Assembly (NCBI GenBank): GCA_964445985.1
Contig: CAYUMU010000083.1
Location: 1 to 29,328 of the forward strand
Direction: 5' to 3'
DNA from: an uncultured Pirellulales bacterium
GTDB lineage: Bacteria > Planctomycetota > Planctomycetia > Pirellulales > S012-138
Length of the DNA stretch: 29,328 nucleotides
In this document: one piece after another, positions 1-28,763 of the stretch
How positions within the stretch are numbered: position 1 is the first letter of the stretch
How the letters are laid out: the number at the start of each line of letters is the position of its first letter
Notes under the pieces: model-generated
The model's input: only the letters and a program-made list of their open reading frames with translations
The model's database searches: none
What the model was told of the DNA's origin: nothing
Made by a program: the position numbers and the translations under genes

Positions 1-47
1 CTTCGAGGCTGGGGAGGCCTTCGTAGGGGTCGGGGTCGTCGGCGAAT

Positions 48-126
48 AGTTCGGAGTGGGGAGTTCGGAGTGGGGGGTTCGGAGTTGAAGAGGGCGGATC
101 GGGGGCGTGTTATCGGGGCTGGGCCT
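48..126. repeat. Array of 7-nt units CGGAGTG/GGGAGTT/CGGAGTT (about 6 units) ending in CGGAGTTGAAGAGGG...GCTGGGCC. A related copy lies at 23758-23820.
   Basis: Read directly: cggagtg gggagtt cggagtg gggggtt cggagtt gaagagg ... gctgggcc. The 23758-23820 copy shares ttcggagtg, ggagttgaaga and gctgggcc in the same order. Confidence 0.6.
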
Positions 127-2741: not shown

Positions 2742-3704
2742 CTAAGGGAGATCGTAGGGCGTGCCGTCGCTACGCCCGGACATATAGAGCAGGGCTTCGG
2801 GCGCGGCATGGGTTTTCACGGCGACGACTCGGGCGTCGCCGTAGGCGAATTGGCTGATGCCAGGGTGCCAACTGCCAAAACGATAGAAGGCTTCGTCGGT
2901 GGTGGCGGCCGAGGCGTTGGTCACCAGCGGAGCGTCAGGCCGGGAGGCCAAGCCCAAGCCGGCGATTTTTGCTCCACCATTGGTACTGGTGGAGACAAAA
3001 GACGCTGAGTGGTAGGGGGCGTCTTCCAGGATCGAGCCGATTTTTGCTGGGTTGAGGTGCTTCTCCCCCACCAGCGCGGTGTAGGTCATCCCATCGGTGA
3101 CGCCGCCAATGGTCACCCGCGAACGAATCGCCGCCGCGGTGGTGACGGCGGCTGCTGGGTGAATGATGGCGCCGCCCATTTGACCACCGGAGGTCAGGGT
3201 GGCAAGGTTCCAACCGGAGAGAGCCGTTGCCAGGGCGGAAGGAACGGTGCTCGAAGTCACGCCCACGCAAACATAGTCGATCGCCTGTCCGCCGTAGGTG
3301 GTATGGCCGTTGAGACGGAAGCCGCGGGTGGGGCAGTGATAGAGTTCGGAGCGGGAGGCTCGCATCAAGGGCGAGTTGGTTACGCCGCTCGACGTGCTCT
3401 GAGCGAAATCCACGCGTTGAAAGGTGGCGTCGTTATCCATCACGGGCCACAGCATGGCCACCCAGCTCACCGGCGTGGCCCCGCCGGCCGCGCAGGGCGG
3501 AAGTTGTTCGCTGTTGCGATCCGCATAGAGCAGCATGCCGGTGGCATACTGCTTGAGATTGCTGGAGCAGTTCGCCCTGCGTGCCGATTCGCGCGCCGCC
3601 TGAATGGCGGGCAGCAGCATCGCGATGAGGATGCCGATAATGGCGATGACAACCAGCAACTCGACCAGAGTGAAAGCGTTGTTCCGGTAACGCGAACGAT
3701 ACAT
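2742..3704 (-). CDS. DUF1559-type protein with N-terminal prepilin-like (type II secretion pseudopilin) methylation/TM segment, typical of Planctomycetes.
   Basis: [52 protein letters not shown], then a Gly/Thr/Ala-rich body ending ...[12 protein letters not shown] at 3704 chosen so the prepilin segment is N-terminal; the ORF is open further upstream. Confidence 0.8.
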
Positions 3705-4258
3705 CGGATAGATCTCCAAGAGAACGATGGCTGACAAAAAAAGACAAGCAAGGGCCGCCAACCCCGCGGATTCCGTAAACGGAATGTCGAGGGGATCAGC
3801 TTTCGCTTGGTTGGGGATGGGCCGCAATCGGGTGGGGGTGGAATTCAAAGCAGGTTGCGAACGGCACGAGGTGAAAATCAGTGCCTGTGCCGAACGCAGT
3901 CACGAAGATAAGCAAGCTTCGTGCCAGTCGGGGTGATCGTGCGACACGCCAAGGCGAAGCGGGCATGGAGAGGACATCCAAGTCCCCACGCAATTCCTCG
4001 ATTTTTCGCCGATTTTGGGAAGGTAGGCCCCGGTTCGAGGCGAGCGCGGCGGCCCGCGGGCGATGAGGATTCGCGGCTGCCAAAGAGCGCCGGCTTGGAA
4101 CAGGTGCAACTTGTGTTGGCACCTGCTGCTTGTGAGCTGGGCAAGCGTGGTTGTTCGCGGGTTGGCTTGGCCTTGCCTGGGGGGGAAGCTGATGTTGATT
4201 GCAGGCGGCGATGGCTTCTTCGCCGCGGCTCGATCCGCCCAATGGGAACGCGCCGACT

Positions 4259-5719
4259 TTACCCCCCGCTGAATTGTTCGAAGTCGTCGTACAGGCGTTT
4301 GGGGGCGTCTTTGAAGCGGGTGAACTGCTGGAACCAGGCGAGGCGGACGTCGTCGATGGGGCCGTTGCGCTGCTTGGCGATGATGATATCGGCAATGCCG
4401 CGCAGATGTTGGTTGGCCGGGTCTTCCTTCTTTTCCTTGCTCATGTAGTACTCTTCGCGGTGAACGAACATCACCACGTCGGCATCCTGCTCGATGGCGC
4501 CCGATTCGCGGAGGTGGCTGAGGCGGGGGCGATTGTCTTTGGAGAGCTCCGCCAGGCGGTTGAGCTGGGCCAGGCAGATCACGGGAATTTTGAGTTCGCG
4601 GGCCATGGCCTTGAGGCGGCGGGCCATTTTGGCGACCTGCTCTTGCCGCGGATCGTTGGAATTGTCGGGCTCGATCAATTGCAGGTAGTCGATGATCAAG
4701 AGGGCCAGCGAGGCTTTGCGTTTGAGCCGGCGGGCGGCGGCGGCGATTTCCGTCACGGTGCGGCTGGGCGTGTCGTCGATGTAGAGCGGGGCGGTGCTCA
4801 GCTCGGCCGAGGCTTCGACCAGTTCGCGGCGATCGTCGTTGGAGAGGAAGCTGCTGCGGAACTTTTCGCCGGCAATTTCGCCTCGGGCGCAGAGCATGCG
4901 CTGGGCCAGCTCCATCCGCGACATTTCGAGGCTGACAAACAGGGTGGCCATTTTTTGATCGACGGCCACGTGTTCGGCGATGTTGGTGGCGAAGGCGGTT
5001 TTGCCCATGCTGGGCCGGGCGGCCAAGATCACCAGTTCGCCTGGGTGCAGTCCGCCGGTGAGCTCGTCGAGATCGGCAAAGCCGGAGGAGACGCCGGAGT
5101 GGTCGCCTTTGAGGCGTTGGTCGATCTTCAGAAAGGCTTCTTGCACGGCCACGTCGAGTTTGACGACGTCGCCGCTGGCGCGTTTGTCGTGCACGGCGAA
5201 GATTTTTTCTTCGGCCTTGCTCATCACGTGGCGGGAGTCGTCGCCGCTTTCGTAAACGTCGCGGATGATTTCGGTGGCGCTGAGGATGAGCGAGCGGAGC
5301 GTGGCTTTCTCGGCCACGATGCGGGCGTAGTATTCGGCGTTGGCGGCGGTGGGCACGCTTTGGGCCAGTTCGGCCAGGTAGGAAATGCCGCCGATGTCGT
5401 CCAGTTGCGCGGCGCCGCGGAGGCGGTCGAGCAGCAGGGTGGTATCGACGCGCTTGCCCTGTTCGTGGAGGGCGAAGATATGCTCGGCGATGACGCGATG
5501 GGCGTCGAGGTAAAAGTCGTCGGGGCGAAGGATCAGCGCCACCTCGTCGCAGAGGTCGGGCACCAGCATCAGGCTGCCGAGCACGCCCTGTTCGGCCTCC
5601 AGGCTTTGCGGGGGCAATCGCTGGAGCAAGTCGCTGCCAGTCGCGCGGCCGTCTTTACCGGCGTTGTCCCGGTGGCGGCTGTCGGGCCGAACCGATCCGT
5701 CGAAACGCGTTTTCGCCAT
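4259..5719 (-). CDS. dnaB: Replicative DNA helicase DnaB.
   Basis: N-terminal LEAEQGVLGSLML (DnaB N-domain); Walker A ARPSMGKTAFATNIAEH; RecA-like core ...LIIDYLQLI...; 486 aa with no intein-sized insertion. Confidence 0.92.
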   Translation of the reverse strand: MAKTRFDGSVRPDSRHRDNAGKDGRATGSDLLQRLPPQSLEAEQGVLGSLMLVPDLCDEVALILRPDDFYLDAHRVIAEHIFALHEQGKRVDTTLLLDRLRGAAQLDDIGGISYLAELAQSVPTAANAEYYARIVAEKATLRSLILSATEIIRDVYESGDDSRHVMSKAEEKIFAVHDKRASGDVVKLDVAVQEAFLKIDQRLKGDHSGVSSGFADLDELTGGLHPGELVILAARPSMGKTAFATNIAEHVAVDQKMATLFVSLEMSRMELAQRMLCARGEIAGEKFRSSFLSNDDRRELVEASAELSTAPLYIDDTPSRTVTEIAAAARRLKRKASLALLIIDYLQLIEPDNSNDPRQEQVAKMARRLKAMARELKIPVICLAQLNRLAELSKDNRPRLSHLRESGAIEQDADVVMFVHREEYYMSKEKKEDPANQHLRGIADIIIAKQRNGPIDDVRLAWFQQFTRFKDAPKRLYDDFEQFSGG

Positions 5720-8341: not shown

Positions 8342-9131
8342 GCCCAAGTTAGTCTGTTTGGATTTCTCGACCGAGCACGGTGAGAACGAGTCAGCGAACG
8401 CGTTTGGAACTGATGCAGCGCGTGGCGCCCATGGCGATCGCCCCGAACCTACCTCGACCGACATGAACCTGTTTTTTGACGACGATCTGCTGGCCGATTT
8501 GCCGCCTGAGTTGCAGGCGTTCGCCTCGCAATTGAGTGACGAAGCGGATGGGCTGGTCGCGGCTTTTCCGGCGCGGGAAGTCCATTCCGCGCGGGTTGCC
8601 GGTGGAACGAATGGAATGCCGGTTGTTCTTGAAACATGTCTTTCTGAATCATCGCCCGAGTTTACGGTGGGCGGTTCGGGTGGCGTGACTGGTGAGGCTG
8701 GGGTTGGGGTTGGCGGCTGGCGTTGGCCGGGGCGACTGGCTCAGGTGGCCGCCATGATTGCGGTCCTGGCGGGGTTGAGCGCTCTGCCGCTGCAACGCGA
8801 TCATCGGGTGGCGAAAGAAGACGAAGTGGATCGGGAAAGCCAAGCGGGACGGGAAAGCCAAGCGGGCCGGGAAAGCCAAGTGGGCCGGGAAAGCCAAGTG
8901 GGCCGGGAAAGCCAGGTGGCGAGCATGGCCGAGCCAGCGGTGCCGCGGCCAGGGCGAGAGGCCCCATCGATTCAGGAAGTTGAACCAGTGGGGGCCGAAG
9001 CGGCGGTGATTGAGCCGGCAGGGTTATCGCCCACGGGGATGCCAGCCACCACGTTTGTTGAGTTATCGGGCGCGGAACAGGAAGCGTTGTTGGATTTGCT
9101 GAGCGAAACCGCGTCGATGGGATCGATTTAG
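8331..9131 (+). CDS. Putative single-pass membrane anti-sigma factor, translationally coupled to the ECF sigma gene and carrying (RESQ[AV]G)x5 repeats.
   Basis: ATG at 8331 overlaps the sigma stop (ATGCCATTTAA). One predicted TM segment (WRWPGRLAQVAAMIAVLAGLSALPL) sits between an acidic N-domain and a C-terminal repeat-containing domain. Gene order is sigma then partner. I recognise no zinc-finger anti-sigma motif. Confidence 0.5.
   Translation: MPFKPKLVCLDFSTEHGENESANAFGTDAARGAHGDRPEPTSTDMNLFFDDDLLADLPPELQAFASQLSDEADGLVAAFPAREVHSARVAGGTNGMPVVLETCLSESSPEFTVGGSGGVTGEAGVGVGGWRWPGRLAQVAAMIAVLAGLSALPLQRDHRVAKEDEVDRESQAGRESQAGRESQVGRESQVGRESQVASMAEPAVPRPGREAPSIQEVEPVGAEAAVIEPAGLSPTGMPATTFVELSGAEQEALLDLLSETASMGSI
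8832..8921 (+). repeat. Five tandem 18-bp units cgggaaagccaagcgggc (coding RESQAG/RESQVG), in frame inside the anti-sigma candidate.
   Basis: Direct reading; units differ only at A/V codon positions. Confidence 0.9.
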
Positions 9132-10832: not shown

Positions 10833-12188
10833 CTAGCGGGTAAACCAGATGAGGAGGGCGACGCCGACCAGCAGCACCGTTCCCACCGCGGCGGCAATGA
10901 GCCATAGTTGCCGCTGGTTCATGTTGTCTTGCTGCTCCAGGGCCTCGGCGACCTGTTCCATGTTGGGGTAGCGATCGGCCGGTTCTTTGGCGACCATTTT
11001 TTGAAACACCTGGTCCAGCCAGGCGGGCACGTCGGGGCGAATTTGCGAGAGGGAGGGGATCGGGCCGGTGCGATGGGCCATGAGTTTGTCGATCATGCCC
11101 TTTCCGGGGTAGGGAATCTGAGCGGTGAGCAGATGGAACATCACGCAGCCCAGGCTGTAGATATCGGCGCGGCCGTCGATGGAGCTGGCGTCGGTGGCCT
11201 GTTCGGGTGCGAGATAGTCGACGGTGCCGATCATTTGTCCGGGGCGAGTCAGGTCTTCGCCGTCGGCCATCGCGCCGTCGTCGTCGAGCTTGGCGAGAAT
11301 GAGGTTGGAAATCTTGATCTGCCCTCGATGGTTGACGATCAGATTTTCGGGTTTGACATTGCGATGATAGATGCCCTGGCCATGCAGATAGGCCAAGCCT
11401 TCGGCCGCGGAGCGGATGAACTCCACGACCGCTTCCACCGGCAACGGGCCGTGCTGTTGAATGATTTGCGCGAGGTCGGCGCCGCCCACGTATTCCATGG
11501 AGAGGAAGTGGATGTCGCCGTCTTCGCCCAGTTCGAACCCGGCCACGAGGTTGCTGTGCGACAGTTTGCGGGTGACTTTGAACTCGCGTTGAAATCGCTT
11601 GAGGACTTCGGTCTTGCTGGCGGCGGCCGGCTTGAGCAATTTGAGGGCGACGATGGCCCCGCTGCCGATGTGCCGCGCCTTGTAGACGGGGCCGGTCGAC
11701 GAACTGGCTGAACGCTCGAGCAGCTGATACTTGCCCACGCGCTTGCCGACGTTGCGGTCGCCCGTGGCGGCAGCGGTTTGGTTGGGGGCAGCGGTTTGGT
11801 TGGGGGCAGGGGGCTGGTTGGGGGCGGGGGCGGCTTTGCCAGCCACGGGCGCGGCGGGCAGGTTGGCCGCGGTTTCGGCTTGGGCCGCTTTGAGCATGGC
11901 TTCGAACGAGGCCTGGGCCGAGCGGAGGGCCGCATCGTAGGCCGCCTTGCGTCGGGCATCGCTCAGCCGGCTGTGGGCGAGCTGCAGTTCTTGCTGCAAA
12001 CGCATGGCCGCTTCGGCCTGGGGGCCGGTGGTATGGGGCCGAACGAGCGCCAGTCTGGATTGGGCGGCGCCGCGAATCACGGCCGGATCGGCCTCGAATC
12101 TTTTCAGGCCAAGCAGCACGTAGAGGTTGGGCGGCTGGTGGACGGGGTCGATGCCCAACCACTGCATGTACGGATCGAAAGGCTCCAT
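10833..12188 (-). CDS. Tail-anchored protein: degenerate J-like domain + protein-kinase-like domain that is a predicted pseudokinase (HRN and SNL in place of HRD and DFG) + C-terminal TM helix.
   Basis: Kinase fold: VALKLLKP (beta3 Lys present), YHRNVKPENLIV, IKISNLILAKL, TVDYLAPEQ. Codons checked on the DNA: cat cgc aat and tcc aac ctc. Gly loop degenerate (RSASSSTG). N-terminus PNLYVLLGL...RPHTTG...KAAYDAAL resembles a J domain lacking HPD. C-terminus LWLIAAAVGTVLLVGVALLIWFTR. ATG 12188 chosen; the ORF is open to 12614 without coding-like content. Confidence 0.7.
   Translation of the reverse strand: MEPFDPYMQWLGIDPVHQPPNLYVLLGLKRFEADPAVIRGAAQSRLALVRPHTTGPQAEAAMRLQQELQLAHSRLSDARRKAAYDAALRSAQASFEAMLKAAQAETAANLPAAPVAGKAAPAPNQPPAPNQTAAPNQTAAATGDRNVGKRVGKYQLLERSASSSTGPVYKARHIGSGAIVALKLLKPAAASKTEVLKRFQREFKVTRKLSHSNLVAGFELGEDGDIHFLSMEYVGGADLAQIIQQHGPLPVEAVVEFIRSAAEGLAYLHGQGIYHRNVKPENLIVNHRGQIKISNLILAKLDDDGAMADGEDLTRPGQMIGTVDYLAPEQATDASSIDGRADIYSLGCVMFHLLTAQIPYPGKGMIDKLMAHRTGPIPSLSQIRPDVPAWLDQVFQKMVAKEPADRYPNMEQVAEALEQQDNMNQRQLWLIAAAVGTVLLVGVALLIWFTR
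11770..11826 (-). repeat. About three tandem 18-bp units (coding APNQTA on the minus strand) in the linker of the pseudokinase gene.
   Basis: gcagcggtttggttgggg repeated; translation gives APNQPPAPNQTAAPNQTAA. Confidence 0.8.
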
Positions 12189-22053: not shown

Positions 22054-22731
22054 TTACTTCCAGCCAAACAAGCGTTCGGCGATTGAGCGTTCTTTTTGCG
22101 GCAGGTCGCTGCCGCGGGCCACTTCGGCCCAAACCTTGGCGTCGCGCGCGTAGTATTTGCCCGTGGCGATTTCGAGGGAATCGATGGTGGAATCGACGAT
22201 GGCCGGGTTGGGGTCGTCGAGGGCGATGGCCAGGGCGGTTACGGCCTCGGGGGTTTTGAGGTTGCCTAGCCCTCGGATGGCGGCCATGCGCACGGCCAGG
22301 TCTTTTTCGCTTTCGACCACGCGGGCCAAAGCGCGGGTGTTATCGGTCCCGCCCTGGGCCGAGAGGCCCTTCACGGCCACGAGGCGAACGTATTCGTCTT
22401 CGTCGCTGATCGCTGCCTGCAGCACCTTGGCCCCGGTGGGCGAAGGCAGCACTTCCAGGGCTTGCACGATGTGGGTGCGGAGGATGGGGTCTTTGGTTTC
22501 GCGAATTTCGGTGGCCAGTTGTTGGGCGAGCTTCTCTTTTTCTTCGGCCGGTTTGCGGCGGCCCGACGCAGCCAGTTTCTGGTAGCGTTCGATCTTTTCG
22601 TGGGGCAGCTCAAAGTCGGCCACGTCTTGCTTCTCCCAGAACAAAACGCCGGGCGGCACGCCAGCCGATCGACAACCGGCGGCTGCGAGTAGCAGGCCCA
22701 ACATCAGGTGGTGGAGAATAGTACGTGGCAT
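22054..22731 (-). CDS. Lipoprotein with PBS-lyase/HEAT-like repeats.
   Basis: Lipobox MPRTILHHLMLGLLLAAAGC. Repeats IVQALEVL..., YVRLVAVKGLSAQGG, DLAVRMAAIRGLGNLKTPEAVTALAIALDDPNPAIVDSTIDSLE. ATG 22731 chosen for the signal peptide; the ORF is open to 22953. Confidence 0.7.
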   Translation of the reverse strand: MPRTILHHLMLGLLLAAAGCRSAGVPPGVLFWEKQDVADFELPHEKIERYQKLAASGRRKPAEEKEKLAQQLATEIRETKDPILRTHIVQALEVLPSPTGAKVLQAAISDEDEYVRLVAVKGLSAQGGTDNTRALARVVESEKDLAVRMAAIRGLGNLKTPEAVTALAIALDDPNPAIVDSTIDSLEIATGKYYARDAKVWAEVARGSDLPQKERSIAERLFGWK

Positions 22732-23203
22732 ACGCTCGAGTAGGTCTCGTACAAAGGCGAATAAGAACGGAGCGATTCGACTGAGGACCGGGAAAGGCGG
22801 CGGAGAGTAGCAAAGGACTTGGATCGGAACCAGACGGCTTTTGGCCGCGCGAACCAACTTTTGTTCAATTCTCCAGTGGCGCCAGATCGATGCCCGCCAT
22901 TGAGGTGTGCTAGCGGCGAAGTCGCCGCCAGGGGGAAGTCGCCCCCCGCACATTCCAAGCTTGGGCAGTCTCAGCCGAATACCCTATCGGGACACGGGGC
23001 GCGCGAACTTCAGGAAGGATTGGCAAAGCTTGACGATTCTTCCTTCTTGGGGAGCAGCCAACGGTTGTGCTATCATGCAATCGGTGCGCGGAAGCTTGCC
23101 GGATCGGCGAGCCCGCCCATCCACGTCGATCGTTCTGAGATACCGGCCGGACACGGCGAGCCACGTTCCGACGCCCCCCCTAACTTTGCCTGGGAGTTTT
23201 CGT

Positions 23204-23719
23204 ATGCCCGACCCGATAGAACATCTCGAAAACCGTCCCTGGCTGGAGCGGATCCTCGGCCATATTCCCGGCTTCTCTGGCTACCTGCAGCGCGAGCGCC
23301 GCCGCGAGGCCGACGCCCTGCAACGCAACTTTCTGGCAGACCGCTTGCAGCGTTCGAAGCGGGCCATCGACACGGTGACTCGGGAACTGACAGCCCGGGG
23401 GATGATCGACCTGCTGGGCGATTTCGACCGGCTCCGGGGCCAACTCGATAAACTCATGGCGCAAATCCGCGGGGCCATGCACGGTTACAGCGGGTTTTTT
23501 GACCTGGTGCAGATCGATGAGAAGGCGCTCGACCGCGTGTACGAGCACGACGCCGACATGCTCGACCGCGTGGAAGAGCTGGCCGAAATGATCGAAGACC
23601 TGCCGCGGGAACGCGACCCGGCGGAGATTGCCGGCCGCGTGCAAAAGTGCCGCGAGCAGGCCGACGAGGTCGAACGGGTGTTTGCCATGAGGGCAGAAAT
23701 CCTCCAAGGCCTAGACTAA
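23204..23719 (+). CDS. 171-aa coiled-coil-rich, acidic hypothetical protein immediately upstream of the SPFH gene.
   Basis: ATG 23204 with GGGAG 8 nt upstream. Heptad-like LQRNFLADRLQRSKRAIDTVTRELTARG and C-terminal EELAEMIEDLPRERDPAEIAGRVQKCREQADEVERV. No recognisable catalytic motif. The ORF is open to 22907, but that extension overlaps the divergent promoter region. Confidence 0.5.
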   Translation: MPDPIEHLENRPWLERILGHIPGFSGYLQRERRREADALQRNFLADRLQRSKRAIDTVTRELTARGMIDLLGDFDRLRGQLDKLMAQIRGAMHGYSGFFDLVQIDEKALDRVYEHDADMLDRVEELAEMIEDLPRERDPAEIAGRVQKCREQADEVERVFAMRAEILQGLD

Positions 23720-23757
23720 CGTCAGCCCCAGTCACCAGCTACCAACCGAATGAGAAA

Positions 23758-23820
23758 AGTGCGGAGTGCGGAATTCGGAGTGCGGAGTTGAAGACGGGAA
23801 TCGTTTGTTGGTGCTGGGCC
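23758..23820. repeat. Second copy of the CGGAGTG-heptad element (cggagtg cggaatt cggagtg cggagtt gaagacggg...gctgggcc), 114 nt upstream of the SPFH gene start.
   Basis: Aligned by eye with 48-126. The downstream spacer also shares ttgcaa and cccgac(g/a)cg with 145-162. Confidence 0.55.
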
Positions 23821-23933
23821 GCTTTGGATTGCAAATTGAGCATGGGAGTAAGACTGCCAACGACCCGACACGAACTACCAACCCCCAGCAACCAGCCACT
23901 AGCAACCAGCCCCCCCCAACCAGGATCTACGCC

Positions 23934-25352
23934 ATGGGCCTTCGCTTGGAAGTCATTCAATACTTTGACAACACGAACAACTCGCTGGTGCATCGCATTC
24001 CGCCTGAAGGCTCGGCCGACATCAAGTACGGGGCCCAGCTGATTGTGCAGGAGACCCAAGAAGCGGTGTTCTTCCGCGACGGCAAGGCCATGGATAAGTT
24101 TGGGCCGGGCCGCTACACGCTGACGACGATGAACGTGCCGATCCTCACGCGGATTCTCACGATTCCCTGGCAAAAGTCGCCGTTTCAGGCGCAGGTGTAT
24201 TACATCGGGAAGCAAACCTTCCTCGACCAGAAATGGGGAACGCGCCAGCCGATTGCCTTCCGCGACAACGATTTTGGGATCGTGCGGCTCCGCAGCTTTG
24301 GCAAGTACTCGTTTCGCGTGGTCGATAGCACGGTGCTGCTGAACACGCTGGTCGGCACGCAGGGGAAATACACCACCGACGACATCACCAGCTTTTTGCG
24401 CGATATGATCGTCAGCCGGATGACCGACCTGCTGGGCACGCTGGGCATCAGCATGCTCGATTTGCCCAGCCGGTACGATGAGGTCGGCTCGGCGACGCGT
24501 GCCAAGGTTTCCGAGGAGTTCGCCAAGTACGGCCTGGAACTGGTCGACTTTTTTATCAACGCGATTACTCCTCCGGAAGAGGTCCAAAAGGCCATCGACC
24601 AGCGGAGCAGCATGGGCGCGATTGGCAATCTGAATGCGTTCATGCAGTACCAGGCGGCGCAAAGCATGGCGAAAATGGCCGAACGCGGCGGGGATGGCGG
24701 GGCCATGGGAATGGGCATGGGCGCCGGTTTCGGGATGATGGTGCCTGGCATGATGCGCGACGCCATGGCCAACCAGGCCGGCTATGGCCAAGGGGGTTAT
24801 CCGCAAGCGGGTCAACCATCGCAGCAGCCGGCTCCGCCCCAGCCATCGCAGCCCACTGCCAGCAGGCCGCAGCGGGTGCAGCCGCCTGGCGGCTCCAGCG
24901 ATATGTTCGCCGACCTGGCCGGCAGTCCCGCCGCAGCCGCTCCCGGCAATCCCCGCGACATGGTCCGCACCATTGCGGAATCGGCCGGATACCGCCTGGC
25001 GGCTTCGGGCAATGCGATGGACATTACCGTGCCCATCGGGACCATGCGCAAGCAGGTGGTGCACGTGGAGTTCGGCGGCAGCGACGACGAAGGGCACGAG
25101 ATCATTCGCTTCCACTCCATTTGTGGGCCGGCCAACGAGCGGAACGCGATGCAGTTGCTTCGCTACAACACCAAGATGGTCCACGGCGCGTTCGCCGCGG
25201 TGCAACAAGGCCAAGAAGAAAAGATCGCCATCCAGGCCAACCTGCTCACCGAAACGGCCGACCCGCTCGAAGTCAGCCGCACGTTGGCGGCGGTTGCGTG
25301 GCAAGCGGATCGGGTGGAGGAGAAACTGCTGGGTGGGCAGGATCAGTATTAG
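23934..25352 (+). CDS. SPFH/band-7 (stomatin/prohibitin-family) domain protein with a Gly/Met/Pro/Gln low-complexity linker and a C-terminal alpha/beta domain, possibly YbjN / T3SS-chaperone-like.
   Basis: N-terminal region matches bacterial SPFH proteins without an N-terminal TM ([39 protein letters not shown]...; later [31 protein letters not shown]). Linker [23 protein letters not shown]...[15 protein letters not shown]. The C-terminal about 130 aa ([19 protein letters not shown]...[16 protein letters not shown]...) is assigned only by pattern resemblance. ATG 23934 chosen; the upstream in-frame stretch is C-rich low complexity. Confidence 0.65.
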
Positions 25353-25414: not shown

Positions 25415-25459
25415 CCGGGGGACTCCCTCGCTAACGCGTCGGGTTATGAATCCGCGGCG
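25415..25459. repeat. Second copy of the hairpin 3'-half element, 63 nt downstream of the SPFH gene stop.
   Basis: 38/39 identity to 187-224. The 5' arm of the hairpin is absent here; only a small local ccccgg/ccgggg inverted repeat precedes it. Confidence 0.65.
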
Positions 25460-25545: not shown

Positions 25546-26337
25546 GTGTCTGAACCCGAACTGAAGGCCCGGCTCGATTTGGCCTTGACCGCAGCCCACG
25601 CGGCGGGCGAGATCACGCTGCGTTACTTCCAGCGCGACAACTTTGAAGTGGAGTGGAAGCAGGACGCCTCGCCGGTGACCGTGGCCGACAAGGAGTCGGA
25701 AAAGTACCTCAGGGCCCAGATCGCCGCCAACTTCCCCGAAGATGGAATTCTAGGCGAAGAGTTCGGCGAACAGCCGGGAACCTCGGGCTATCGTTGGATT
25801 CTCGACCCGATCGATGGCACCAAGTCGTTCATCCACGGCGTGCCGCTGTATGGCACGCTGATTGGCATTGAGCGGGGCGACCGCTGCCCGATCGGCGTGA
25901 TTCACATGCCGGCCCTGAACCAGCGGGTTTATGCCATGCAAGGCGGCGGGGCCTGGTTTCAAGATGGGAATAGCCCCGCCGTTCCTGCCCGCGTGAGCCA
26001 AACGGCCGAGTTGAGCAAAGCTTTGTTTCTCACGTCCGAGGTAGAAGGCTTCAATAAGGTCGGCCGGTTCGAGGCATTCACGGCTTTGCAGGCCGCGGCC
26101 GGGCTAACCCGCACCTGGGGCGATTGCTACGGATACCTGCTGGTAGCCACGGGCCGCGCCGGGGCGATGGTCGATCCCCGCATGAGCGTATGGGACGCGG
26201 CCAGCATGCAGCCCATCCTGGAAGAAGCCGGCGGCACGTTCACCGACTGGGAGGGGAAGCCGACCATTCACTCGGGCAACGGCGTGGCGACCAATGGGTT
26301 GCTGCTGGAGCAGGTGTTGAAGCATACAAGGTGTTGA
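25546..26337 (+). CDS. Inositol-monophosphatase-family phosphatase (IMPase / histidinol-phosphatase HisN-like).
   Basis: WILDPIDGTKSFIHGVPLYGTLIGIE and WDAASMQPILEEAGG motifs. GTG start 8 nt after AAAGGAAA. Confidence 0.85.
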   Translation: MSEPELKARLDLALTAAHAAGEITLRYFQRDNFEVEWKQDASPVTVADKESEKYLRAQIAANFPEDGILGEEFGEQPGTSGYRWILDPIDGTKSFIHGVPLYGTLIGIERGDRCPIGVIHMPALNQRVYAMQGGGAWFQDGNSPAVPARVSQTAELSKALFLTSEVEGFNKVGRFEAFTALQAAAGLTRTWGDCYGYLLVATGRAGAMVDPRMSVWDAASMQPILEEAGGTFTDWEGKPTIHSGNGVATNGLLLEQVLKHTRC

Positions 26338-26357
26338 AGCATACAAGGGGGCAATGA

Positions 26358-27619: not shown

Positions 27620-28678
27620 CTATTCAGGAACTACGCCCGAACCGGGTTGTTTTTGCGTGGAATAGGTTTGGAGAATCGCGGCCAGCGACTTGAAGGACTC
27701 AGCCGAGATATCGCCCTGCAATGACTGTCGATCCCAGTCGAAAATGACTTCGTGGCAGCCAAAGCAAATGAGCATGCGGTACTGCCGCTGGTCGCGTTGC
27801 CACACCAGGAGCCAATCGGGGTGAAAGCCGCCGCAGAACTTGGGGTGGTAGGGGGTAAAGCTGGCCGAGGCCGTGCAAAGGTCGAACAGTTTGGGGAAGT
27901 CGGCGGCCGAAGGTTCGATGGCCGGGCGATAGAACGTGTATCCCCGAAGTTTGAAGCGTGGCCGGCGCACTGGGGGTGTCGCTGGCTGCCACCGGTTAGG
28001 GCGCGGGAGCCCTTCGAATAGTTGCAGCGATTCGGCATGAAAGATGGTTTGCAGCAGCGGATCCCGCTGGGAAGCAAAGCGGGCTTCCTCGGCTTTCTCT
28101 TCCGCTTGAGACGGCGGACGCTGCCTGCCGTATTTCGCCAGCCAATACTTCAGGTCGCCAGCGGCATGGGGGGCGAAGTCGGTCCAGAGTCCGCTCGTAG
28201 GGCCATGGATTTGCGCCTCCTGGCACCCCAAGCAAACCAGCACCTGGTATACGGCATCGCCGTTCTTCCAAGTGAGACACCAATCGGGGTGAAAGCCGCC
28301 GCAGAACTTGGAGCCGCTGTAGGGTTGAAACGATCGTGCTTGCGAGCAAAGGCGGCGGAGATTCCGCTTCTCGGCTAGCTTGACTTCGAGGGGCGCGCGG
28401 TAGAAGTGGAAGCCGTGAATCTGGATGGTTTCTTTTTGCTGAAGTTCTTGCTCAAGCAGTTCAGGTTCCCAGCGCGGATGCGGCAGGCCTTCGTGGAGCG
28501 TGAGCGCTTCGCAGTTGCGGATTGCCCGCATGAAGGGGTCGATGGATTGCTCAAAGTGCTCGCGGGTATCGGGCTGGGAGCCAGCGAGATTTGGCGGGCT
28601 ATCGTTCGCCGACAAGGCTCCAGCGGCGGCGAGCAACATCAGGAGCAAGTACGTTGCGTATCGTGCGGCGTTTACCAT
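27620..28678 (-). CDS. Secreted protein made of two tandem copies of a roughly 150-aa module carrying the motif LC-x2-A-x-SF-x-PY-x3-KFCGGFHPDW-x-L-x-W-x6-Y-x2-L-x-C-x-GC-x-E. No function recognised.
   Basis: Signal peptide MVNAARYATYLLLMLLAAAGALSA. Copy 1 ...FQPYSGSKFCGGFHPDWCLTWKNGDAVYQVLVCLGCQEA. Copy 2 ...FTPYHPKFCGGFHPDWLLVWQRDQRQYRMLICFGCHEV. Each copy also starts with EGLP-x-P-x-W. ATG 28678 chosen; the ORF is open to 28714. Confidence 0.6.
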   Translation of the reverse strand: MVNAARYATYLLLMLLAAAGALSANDSPPNLAGSQPDTREHFEQSIDPFMRAIRNCEALTLHEGLPHPRWEPELLEQELQQKETIQIHGFHFYRAPLEVKLAEKRNLRRLCSQARSFQPYSGSKFCGGFHPDWCLTWKNGDAVYQVLVCLGCQEAQIHGPTSGLWTDFAPHAAGDLKYWLAKYGRQRPPSQAEEKAEEARFASQRDPLLQTIFHAESLQLFEGLPRPNRWQPATPPVRRPRFKLRGYTFYRPAIEPSAADFPKLFDLCTASASFTPYHPKFCGGFHPDWLLVWQRDQRQYRMLICFGCHEVIFDWDRQSLQGDISAESFKSLAAILQTYSTQKQPGSGVVPE

Positions 28679-28763
28679 GTACTTGCCCTTCGTTCTAAAG
28701 CGGACCTGAATCAATCATTTCCCGATTTCCACGAAGGCCAATCTAGTCGTCATTTCTGCTTAA

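Follow-up and report, generated by a model that had tools for sequence, protein, structure and literature searches.

What accompanies an SPFH protein that has neither a membrane anchor nor an NfeD gene at its side, and does such an arrangement belong to an SPFH system already described? The question is raised by two neighboring genes of an uncultured Pirellulales bacterium (GenBank assembly GCA_964445985.1, contig CAYUMU010000083.1). We analyzed positions 1 to 29,328 of this contig, a stretch referred to below as the window; the two genes occupy 23204 to 25352 on its forward strand. The first encodes a small acidic protein of 171 amino acids (aa), here called cc171, and the second an SPFH protein of 472 aa. 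We find that genes of the cc171 family adjoin Band_7_1-type SPFH genes on their upstream side in Planctomycetota, in Armatimonadota and in other metagenomic lineages, whichever adaptor domain the SPFH protein carries at its C-terminus. The domain identities and the gene pairing are near certain. The parts of the pair, with lengths of DNA in nucleotides (nt), are as follows.

23204-23719, plus strand: cc171, from the ATG at 23204 to the stop at 23719; 171 aa, acidic, all-helical
23720-23933: spacer between cc171 and the SPFH gene, 214 nt
23934-25352, plus strand: SPFH gene, from the ATG at 23934 to the stop at 25352; 472 aa, with a Band_7_1 domain, a Gly/Met-rich motif, a disordered linker and a CesT/YbjN-like domain
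24015-24620, plus strand: SPFH domain of the Band_7_1 subfamily, residues 28-229
24693-24755, plus strand: uncharged Gly/Met-rich motif, residues 254-274, nearly invariant among 120 homologues
24756-24944, plus strand: Gly/Gln/Pro/Ala-rich linker of variable sequence, residues 275-337, with little conservation and many insertions and deletions
24945-25334, plus strand: CesT/Tir/YbjN-like (secretion-chaperone-like) alpha/beta domain, residues ~338-467, ~130 aa

Both open reading frames are real genes. Relatives of the SPFH protein number in the thousands; the best 120 have 447-490 aa and show 61-100% identity to it, and the named organisms among these 120 are all Planctomycetota (Pirellulales, Thermoguttaceae and Planctomycetaceae). 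For cc171 there are 333 close homologues, mostly of ~169 aa. A longer SPFH reading frame starting from GTG 23766 was considered, and this start was rejected because the homologues align from the Met at 23934.

The pairing was followed through 80 genome loci of Pirellulales, each coding for a full-length SPFH relative, a set across which the SPFH protein is 55-85% identical. In 57 of these 80 loci the gene directly before it on the same strand is cc171, with spacers of 15-621 nt. Among the distant relatives of cc171 that lie on usable contigs, Band_7_1 is the next gene on the same strand in every case (8/8), and a metagenome scan placed Band_7_1 next to a cc171 relative in 22 of the 26 loci that had at least 300 nt of downstream sequence and were therefore informative. 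Homologues of the SPFH protein thus do co-occur with the upstream gene, and they do so across phyla. The adjacency is kept in Armatimonadota and other lineages where all other neighbors differ, and this cross-phylum adjacency is the decisive evidence for a module.

Two kinds of SPFH partner are found in these more distant loci. In those named as Armatimonadota, and on two related metagenomic contigs, the partner has 327-332 aa and a zinc-ribbon (Zn_Ribbon) end; Band_7_1 partners of this zinc-ribbon type are encoded in loci L081-L083, L085 and L087. On contigs of planctomycete type the partner has 430-444 aa and ends in a CesT-like domain; planctomycete-type partners as a whole span 430-472 aa. 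Because cc171 stands beside both types, what is conserved is a core of cc171 and the SPFH domain of Band_7_1, and the adaptor at the C-terminus can be exchanged.

The SPFH domain itself is unambiguous in its assignment. PF13421 (Band_7_1) matches with 223.1 bits against a cut-off of 24 (E 4e-66), residues 28-229 corresponding to model positions 8-210 of 211, and 52 bits are obtained with PF01145, the generic Band_7 model, in keeping with the band-7 identity that the initial annotation of this locus had proposed for the N-terminal part. The hflK model reaches 13.3 bits against a cut-off of 159.4, and no solved SPFH structure related by sequence was found in the PDB at E<=0.1. A profile of 120 homologues shows that the SPFH domain is very highly conserved, as is the helix that follows it. 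The same annotation had noted that a membrane anchor at the N-terminus and an NfeD partner are both missing, and on both counts it was right: the highest Kyte-Doolittle mean over 19 residues is 1.09, so low that no transmembrane (TM) anchor is predicted, and a Pfam scan of the pair's neighbors returned no NfeD-family match. The Gly/Met-rich motif has a corresponding mean of 1.03, and its AGMGMGAGVGMGAAM recurs in the zinc-ribbon-type relatives of L081 and L082; we regard this motif as a candidate membrane-contact segment. Its surroundings agree with the Gly/Met/Gln/Pro-rich linker described earlier, since residues 251-335 contain 18 Gly, 13 Ala, 12 Pro, 10 Gln and 9 Met. The SPFH protein is thus an anchor-less Band_7_1 protein whose layout, comprising an SPFH domain, a Gly/Met motif, a flexible linker and a C-terminal adaptor, is common to it and its zinc-ribbon-type relatives.

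What distinguishes the window protein lies at its C-terminus. The last 150 residues stay below the thresholds of the curated families, with 20.1 bits against 27 for CesT_Tir_1 (PF22550) and 15.9 against 22 for YbjN (PF10722), and no sequence-level match to DUF2170 (PF09938) was obtained. The weak matches recur in homologues, CesT_Tir_1 in 26 of 29 (best E 5e-5), YbjN in 12 of 29 and TY-Chap1 in 4 of 29. Structural matches to the C-terminal domain were as follows, with their scores.

DUF2170/BacA (8q8o): 12.4, the best match
Tll0839, YbjN family: 11.7
VecA, CesT family: 11.7
DR_1245: 10.6
AmyR, YbjN family: 10.1
SicP, SycH, ExsC, SigE and other chaperones of type III secretion systems (T3SS): 8.6-10.5

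These matches to folds of the BacA, YbjN and CesT types mean that the earlier description of a YbjN-like or type III secretion chaperone-like fold was correct, but membership in a curated family did not follow. The domain is CesT/YbjN-like, and no other well-characterized family claimed it. Its invariant residues include RKQ, SxCGP, HGAFA and AWQAD. No zinc ribbon was matched by Pfam in the window SPFH protein, whose C-terminal domain has a single conserved Cys and an alpha/beta fold, and no T3SS family was found among the window open reading frames scanned. In other words, a domain of the CesT/Tir/YbjN fold occupies the place that a zinc ribbon holds in the relatives.

The upstream partner is a different matter, as it belongs to a family that the curated collections hardly touch. 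cc171 carries a net charge of -9 (-11 for residues 101-171 alone) and has no TM segment, the highest Kyte-Doolittle 19-residue mean being 0.59. An AlphaFold2 model (predicted local distance difference test score, pLDDT, 79) places helices at residues 24-64, 68-101, 106-131 and 139-167, and the protein would accordingly be a compact bundle of four long helices. The initial annotation was therefore right about a small acidic protein encoded upstream, but the modeled fold is not that of a classical coiled coil. Two motifs are strongly conserved in the family, [IV]PGFxGY..E.RR..D near the N-terminus (residues ~21-37) and GYSGFFD between helices 2 and 3 (~94-100). A profile search of 1.84 billion cluster representatives, with clusters defined at 50% identity, returned 1611 cc171 clusters at E<=1e-3, of which 1021 reach E<=1e-10; lengths of 160-185 aa prevail among the best 150. 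No Pfam family was found in any of 35 members. The sole curated match is the NCBIfam family NF047596, LIMLP_15305 of Leptospira, a family without a described function, which aligns over its full length with E 1.9e-14 and 53.9 bits. Ten distant cc171 relatives of 159-181 aa were compared with the same model, and all match at full length (E 9e-7 to 7e-19). The likeness thus extends to size and to alignment over the full model, whereas the scores of cc171 and its relatives, 29-68 bits, lie far below the equivalog cut-off of 210; cc171 is homologous to the LIMLP_15305 family but is not an equivalog of it.

Descent from PspA was considered for cc171 and rejected. PF04012 and Snf7 were found in none of the 35 members (0/35), a cc171 profile run against PDB sequences returned coiled-coil noise only, with no match to PspA or Vipp1, and hhalign against E. 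coli PspA gave a probability of 0.66%. As a separate observation, a very divergent cc171 relative (28% identity) is encoded at L119 3995-4441, on a low-GC contig where it is surrounded by membrane proteins with zinc-ribbon ends and where there is no SPFH gene.

A handful of fusions and gene neighborhoods tie the cc171 family to PspA-associated systems. In one relative, P0369, cc171 and DUF4178 (PF13785, E 2e-16) are joined in one continuous protein. The P0369 gene opens an operon on one strand (L087 702-4039) that continues with a PspA_IM30 gene (179 bits) and then with a Band_7_1 gene whose product has a double zinc ribbon. A stand-alone DUF4178 gene (4907-5347) follows cc171 in L112, where no SPFH gene lies within 4 kb. 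In another relative, P0314, encoded on a 1-kb JGI contig, an N-terminal zinc ribbon and a Pro/Thr/Gln-rich linker precede cc171; this is the same accessory module that is otherwise found at the C-terminus of the SPFH partner.

How does the pair compare with systems already studied? To our knowledge, no branch of the SPFH superfamily is less well understood than the soluble proteins, of which only YdjI/SamI of B. subtilis has been studied. We take YdjI to be a match to PF13421. The soluble subfamilies SPFH8 and SPFH9 were termed 'undocumented' (Hinderhofer 2009). YdjI/SamI, encoded in the pspA-ydjGHI (pspA-samGHI) operon, has the layout of the zinc-ribbon-type relatives in L081-L083, L085 and L087 (PMC8581546); these carry the Gly/Met motif of the window SPFH protein, and L087 has a PspA gene as well. 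YdjI/SamI binds PspA, relies on YdjG/YdjH for its recruitment to the membrane, and is needed for PspA membrane foci (PMC8581546; bioRxiv 10.64898/2026.02.06.704340). The window protein differs in that a ~130-aa domain of the CesT/YbjN fold replaces the zinc ribbon. No pspA was detected near the window pair, and homologues of ydjG (zinc ribbon, NTF2-like, TM) and ydjH (TPM) were not specifically searched for. The neighbors of the window pair are instead genes for a HEAT lipoprotein and for a protein of the inositol monophosphatase (IMPase) family, and a partner of the cc171 type has not been described for B. subtilis.

The C-terminal domain has its counterparts in other systems. Genomic links that join PspA to DUF4178, to band-7 proteins and to CesT/Tir-like proteins (YjfI/DUF2170) have been reported (Ravi et al., PMC11237479), and an association of band-7 with CesT/Tir-like proteins has been reported at the operon level in phage shock protein (PSP) systems (PMC11237479). 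BacA (DUF2170) comes from a PSP-like operon and is reported to interact with the PspA-like BacB (PMC10948618). In the yjf operon of E. coli and the bac operon of P. aeruginosa, however, the CesT-like protein (YjfI/BacA), the PspA homologue (YjfJ/BacB) and a TM-anchored flotillin are separate gene products, whereas the CesT-like domain of the window is fused to a soluble Band_7_1 protein, with no adjacent PspA gene and no PF09938 match. The members of the YbjN family (PF10722), E. coli YbjN, Erwinia AmyR, Deinococcus DR1245 and Tll0839, are stand-alone proteins without an SPFH fusion. Stomatins and flotillins coupled to NfeD (QmcA-YbbJ, YqiK-YqiJ, FloA/FloT) and HflK/C share with the window protein the SPFH superfamily and a probable self-assembly into oligomers, but the window protein lacks their N-terminal TM anchor, their NfeD partner and the link to FtsH.

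Much of the architecture is therefore familiar. An SPFH subfamily with a soluble design of linker and C-terminal adaptor, Band_7_1 with YdjI/SamI, was already known, as was the association of band-7 and CesT-like proteins in operons, and to this extent the earlier view that the locus is not a described SPFH operon type needs qualification. It holds for the fusion and for the upstream family: we found no literature description of Band_7_1 and CesT/YbjN in one polypeptide, of the cc171 family as a conserved partner of Band_7_1, or of the ties that fusions and operons give this family to DUF4178 and PspA, DUF4178 being met only in the PSP paper. The finding is a solid comparative-genomics lead and not a categorical surprise. 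It offers three handles, namely a widespread family of small helical partners for Band_7_1 proteins, a modular C-terminal adaptor that is either a zinc ribbon or CesT/YbjN-like, and a contextual bridge that joins Band_7_1, cc171, DUF4178, CesT-like domains and PspA.

With moderate confidence, we lean towards a reading in which the pair forms a cytoplasmic, peripheral-membrane scaffold module of the YdjI/SamI (Band_7_1) kind. This would place it among the SPFH systems linked to maintenance, of the PspA type, of the envelope and of the membrane under stress. Other SPFH proteins oligomerize, and the SPFH domains of this protein would assemble into a ring or cage at the inner face of the cytoplasmic membrane. 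cc171 would bind a part that is common to the zinc-ribbon and CesT types (the SPFH domain, the helix after it or the Gly/Met segment) and would control SPFH oligomerization or membrane docking. Contact with the membrane might be made by the Gly/Met segment, by the conserved N-terminal motif of cc171, or by both. A client or receptor would be captured by the flexibly tethered CesT/YbjN-like domains, working as dimeric adaptors that bind peptides. They would in that case be a built-in counterpart of YjfI/BacA, a CesT-like protein that partners members of the PspA family. We suggest as the client either an ESCRT-III/PspA-like protein encoded elsewhere or a partner specific to planctomycetes. If this is true, the pair would represent a simple two-protein system for the membrane assembly of anchor-less SPFH scaffolds, and a pointer to how membrane stress is handled in Planctomycetota, bearers of an unusual cell envelope.

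Several points weigh against this reading. All of the function, and the physical interaction of cc171 with the SPFH protein, is inferred from genomic context, and the 214-nt spacer leaves co-transcription of the two genes unproven. The link to PspA consists of one operon (L087) and one DUF4178 neighbor (L112), and a search of the window and the 80 Pirellulales loci (0.9 Mb) with a two-sequence hidden Markov model of low sensitivity found no PspA-like open reading frame. In 23 of the 80 loci, moreover, cc171 does not lie beside the SPFH gene (2 of these 23 end short upstream), and cc171 is therefore not strictly required in cis. No cc171-like replacement was found in these 23 loci, where the upstream reading frames are unrelated or spurious. 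The cc171-less loci form several small clades scattered over the SPFH tree, which suggests repeated loss or relocation.

More tentatively, and as a possibility that we hold to be less probable than the scaffold reading itself, cc171 could be an unrecognized, dedicated subunit that serves a soluble Band_7_1 membrane-maintenance machine across phyla, with or without an adjacent PspA gene. Interchangeable adaptors would set the client or receptor of such a machine, and the CesT-like domain of planctomycetes would be its built-in YjfI/BacA-type adaptor for an ESCRT-III-like or lineage-specific membrane-remodeling client.

An alternative casts the C-terminal domain as a sensor of a ligand, or as a module of the YbjN type that serves stress responses or regulation. 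The protein would then be mainly a signaling device (acting, for example, through c-di-AMP or transcription), with cc171 as its regulator rather than a subunit of a scaffold. Members of the YbjN family (YbjN, AmyR, DR1245) have been linked to stress regulation (PMC10948618), and loss of SamI in B. subtilis leads to constitutive stress signaling (bioRxiv 10.64898/2026.02.06.704340). The many invariant residues of the C-terminal domain could mark a specific site. A diadenylate cyclase (DAC/DacZ_P) gene, furthermore, lies ~2 kb upstream of the pair, beyond the HEAT gene, in 28 of the 80 loci (among them L031, at 3248-4303 on the minus strand) and in L084 (1034-1963) and L086 (1-911). This gene is absent, however, from the window and from the non-planctomycete modules, the pair contains no DNA-binding or enzymatic domain, and the exchange of a zinc ribbon for a CesT domain favors a generic docking role. 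We consider a signaling function unlikely, if still the best placed of the competing explanations.

Somewhat less probable again is that cc171 is itself a very divergent remodeler of the PspA/ESCRT-III kind. On this view, polymers of cc171 would be brought to damaged membrane by the SPFH protein, and the two together would amount to a PspA-YdjI system in minimal form. Family models, the PDB profile search and hhalign all fail to support such a kinship, as described above, and cc171 and PspA coexist in L087. It is very unlikely that the adjacency of cc171 and the SPFH gene merely reflects lineage synteny without functional coupling; the 23 loci that lack an adjacent cc171 and the long spacer of 214 nt could be read in that sense, but the adjacency persists in Armatimonadota and elsewhere despite different neighbors, and the fusions tie cc171 to the zinc-ribbon/linker module and to DUF4178. 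A mobile anti-phage defense, toxin-antitoxin-like or secretion-chaperone system, with the flanking repeats as marks of a mobile insertion, can hardly be credited, for while SPFH and chaperone-like folds are known in some conflict systems and short repeats do lie on both sides of the SPFH gene, PADLOC gave no meaningful match (only HORMA at 15 bits), the pair and its HEAT neighbor are syntenic across Pirellulales, the SPFH identities across the 80 loci follow a housekeeping-gene pattern, there are no T3SS genes nearby, and the repeats, short intergenic elements specific to this genome, have no copy in 84 related loci and surround only one gene of the pair.

Around the scaffold module favored here, the window contains the following neighboring features.

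22054-22953, minus strand: gene for a HEAT-repeat protein, divergently transcribed (HEAT_2, E 1e-15)
25417-25459: copy of the right arm (183-225) of a palindromic repeat, 98% identical, downstream of the SPFH gene
25546-26337: IMPase-family gene, neighbor of the SPFH gene

The HEAT-repeat gene is carried by 46 of the 80 loci, mostly upstream and on the opposite strand, as well as by L086, and is absent from the Armatimonadota-type modules; it is a syntenic neighbor within Planctomycetota only and probably lies outside the core module. About 75 codons into the mechanical reading frame 22054-22953 there is a lipobox-like signal peptide (LLLAAAGC), a position from which the true start is probably the internal Met. 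The HEAT protein would then be a lipoprotein that is exported, with its gene divergent from those of a cytoplasmic module. Genes downstream of the SPFH gene are not conserved across the 80 loci, and the rest of the window has genes for a sulfatase, a DUF1559/N-methyl protein, trypsin-PDZ proteases and TPR proteins, a set usual for Pirellulales.

Within the 214-nt spacer, a promoter and terminator scan found no terminator-like or sigma-70-like site above shuffle expectation, and no Rfam family was matched there or elsewhere. A 7-mer enrichment over 55 upstream regions yielded only TATGATG (12/55), which is not convincing as a conserved upstream motif. The spacer does hold a GGAGTG-rich 14-nt repeat (23758-23797) and CCAnC-rich repeats (23864-23911). 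The former is a recurrence, at 80% identity, of a GGAGTG-rich 14-nt tandem repeat at window 41-94, close to a palindrome near the window start (155-225) with a 22-bp stem, AACCCGACGCGTTAGCGAGGGA...TCCCTCGCTAACGCGTCGGGTT. The repeat halves that the initial annotation had placed on either side of the module do exist, but with one copy inside the spacer and the other behind the SPFH gene they bracket that gene only and not the two-gene module. No copy of the window repeats was found in the 84 related loci, and they are genome-specific intergenic elements without a demonstrated relation to the module.

Other repeats of the window fall within or across genes. At 26312-26345 a perfect 17-nt tandem duplication, two copies of AGGTGTTGAAGCATACA, runs across the stop codon of the IMPase-family gene and probably alters the C-terminus of its product. 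A perfect direct repeat of 32 nt, at 27812-27843 and 28280-28311 and thus 468 nt apart, lies in the open reading frame 27620-28714 (minus strand), which has no Pfam match; it suggests a recent internal domain duplication in this frame. Finally, tandem arrays of 18 nt occur in open reading frames at 8799-8919 (5 overlapping copies) and 11765-11830 (3 copies), where they would encode short peptide repeats.

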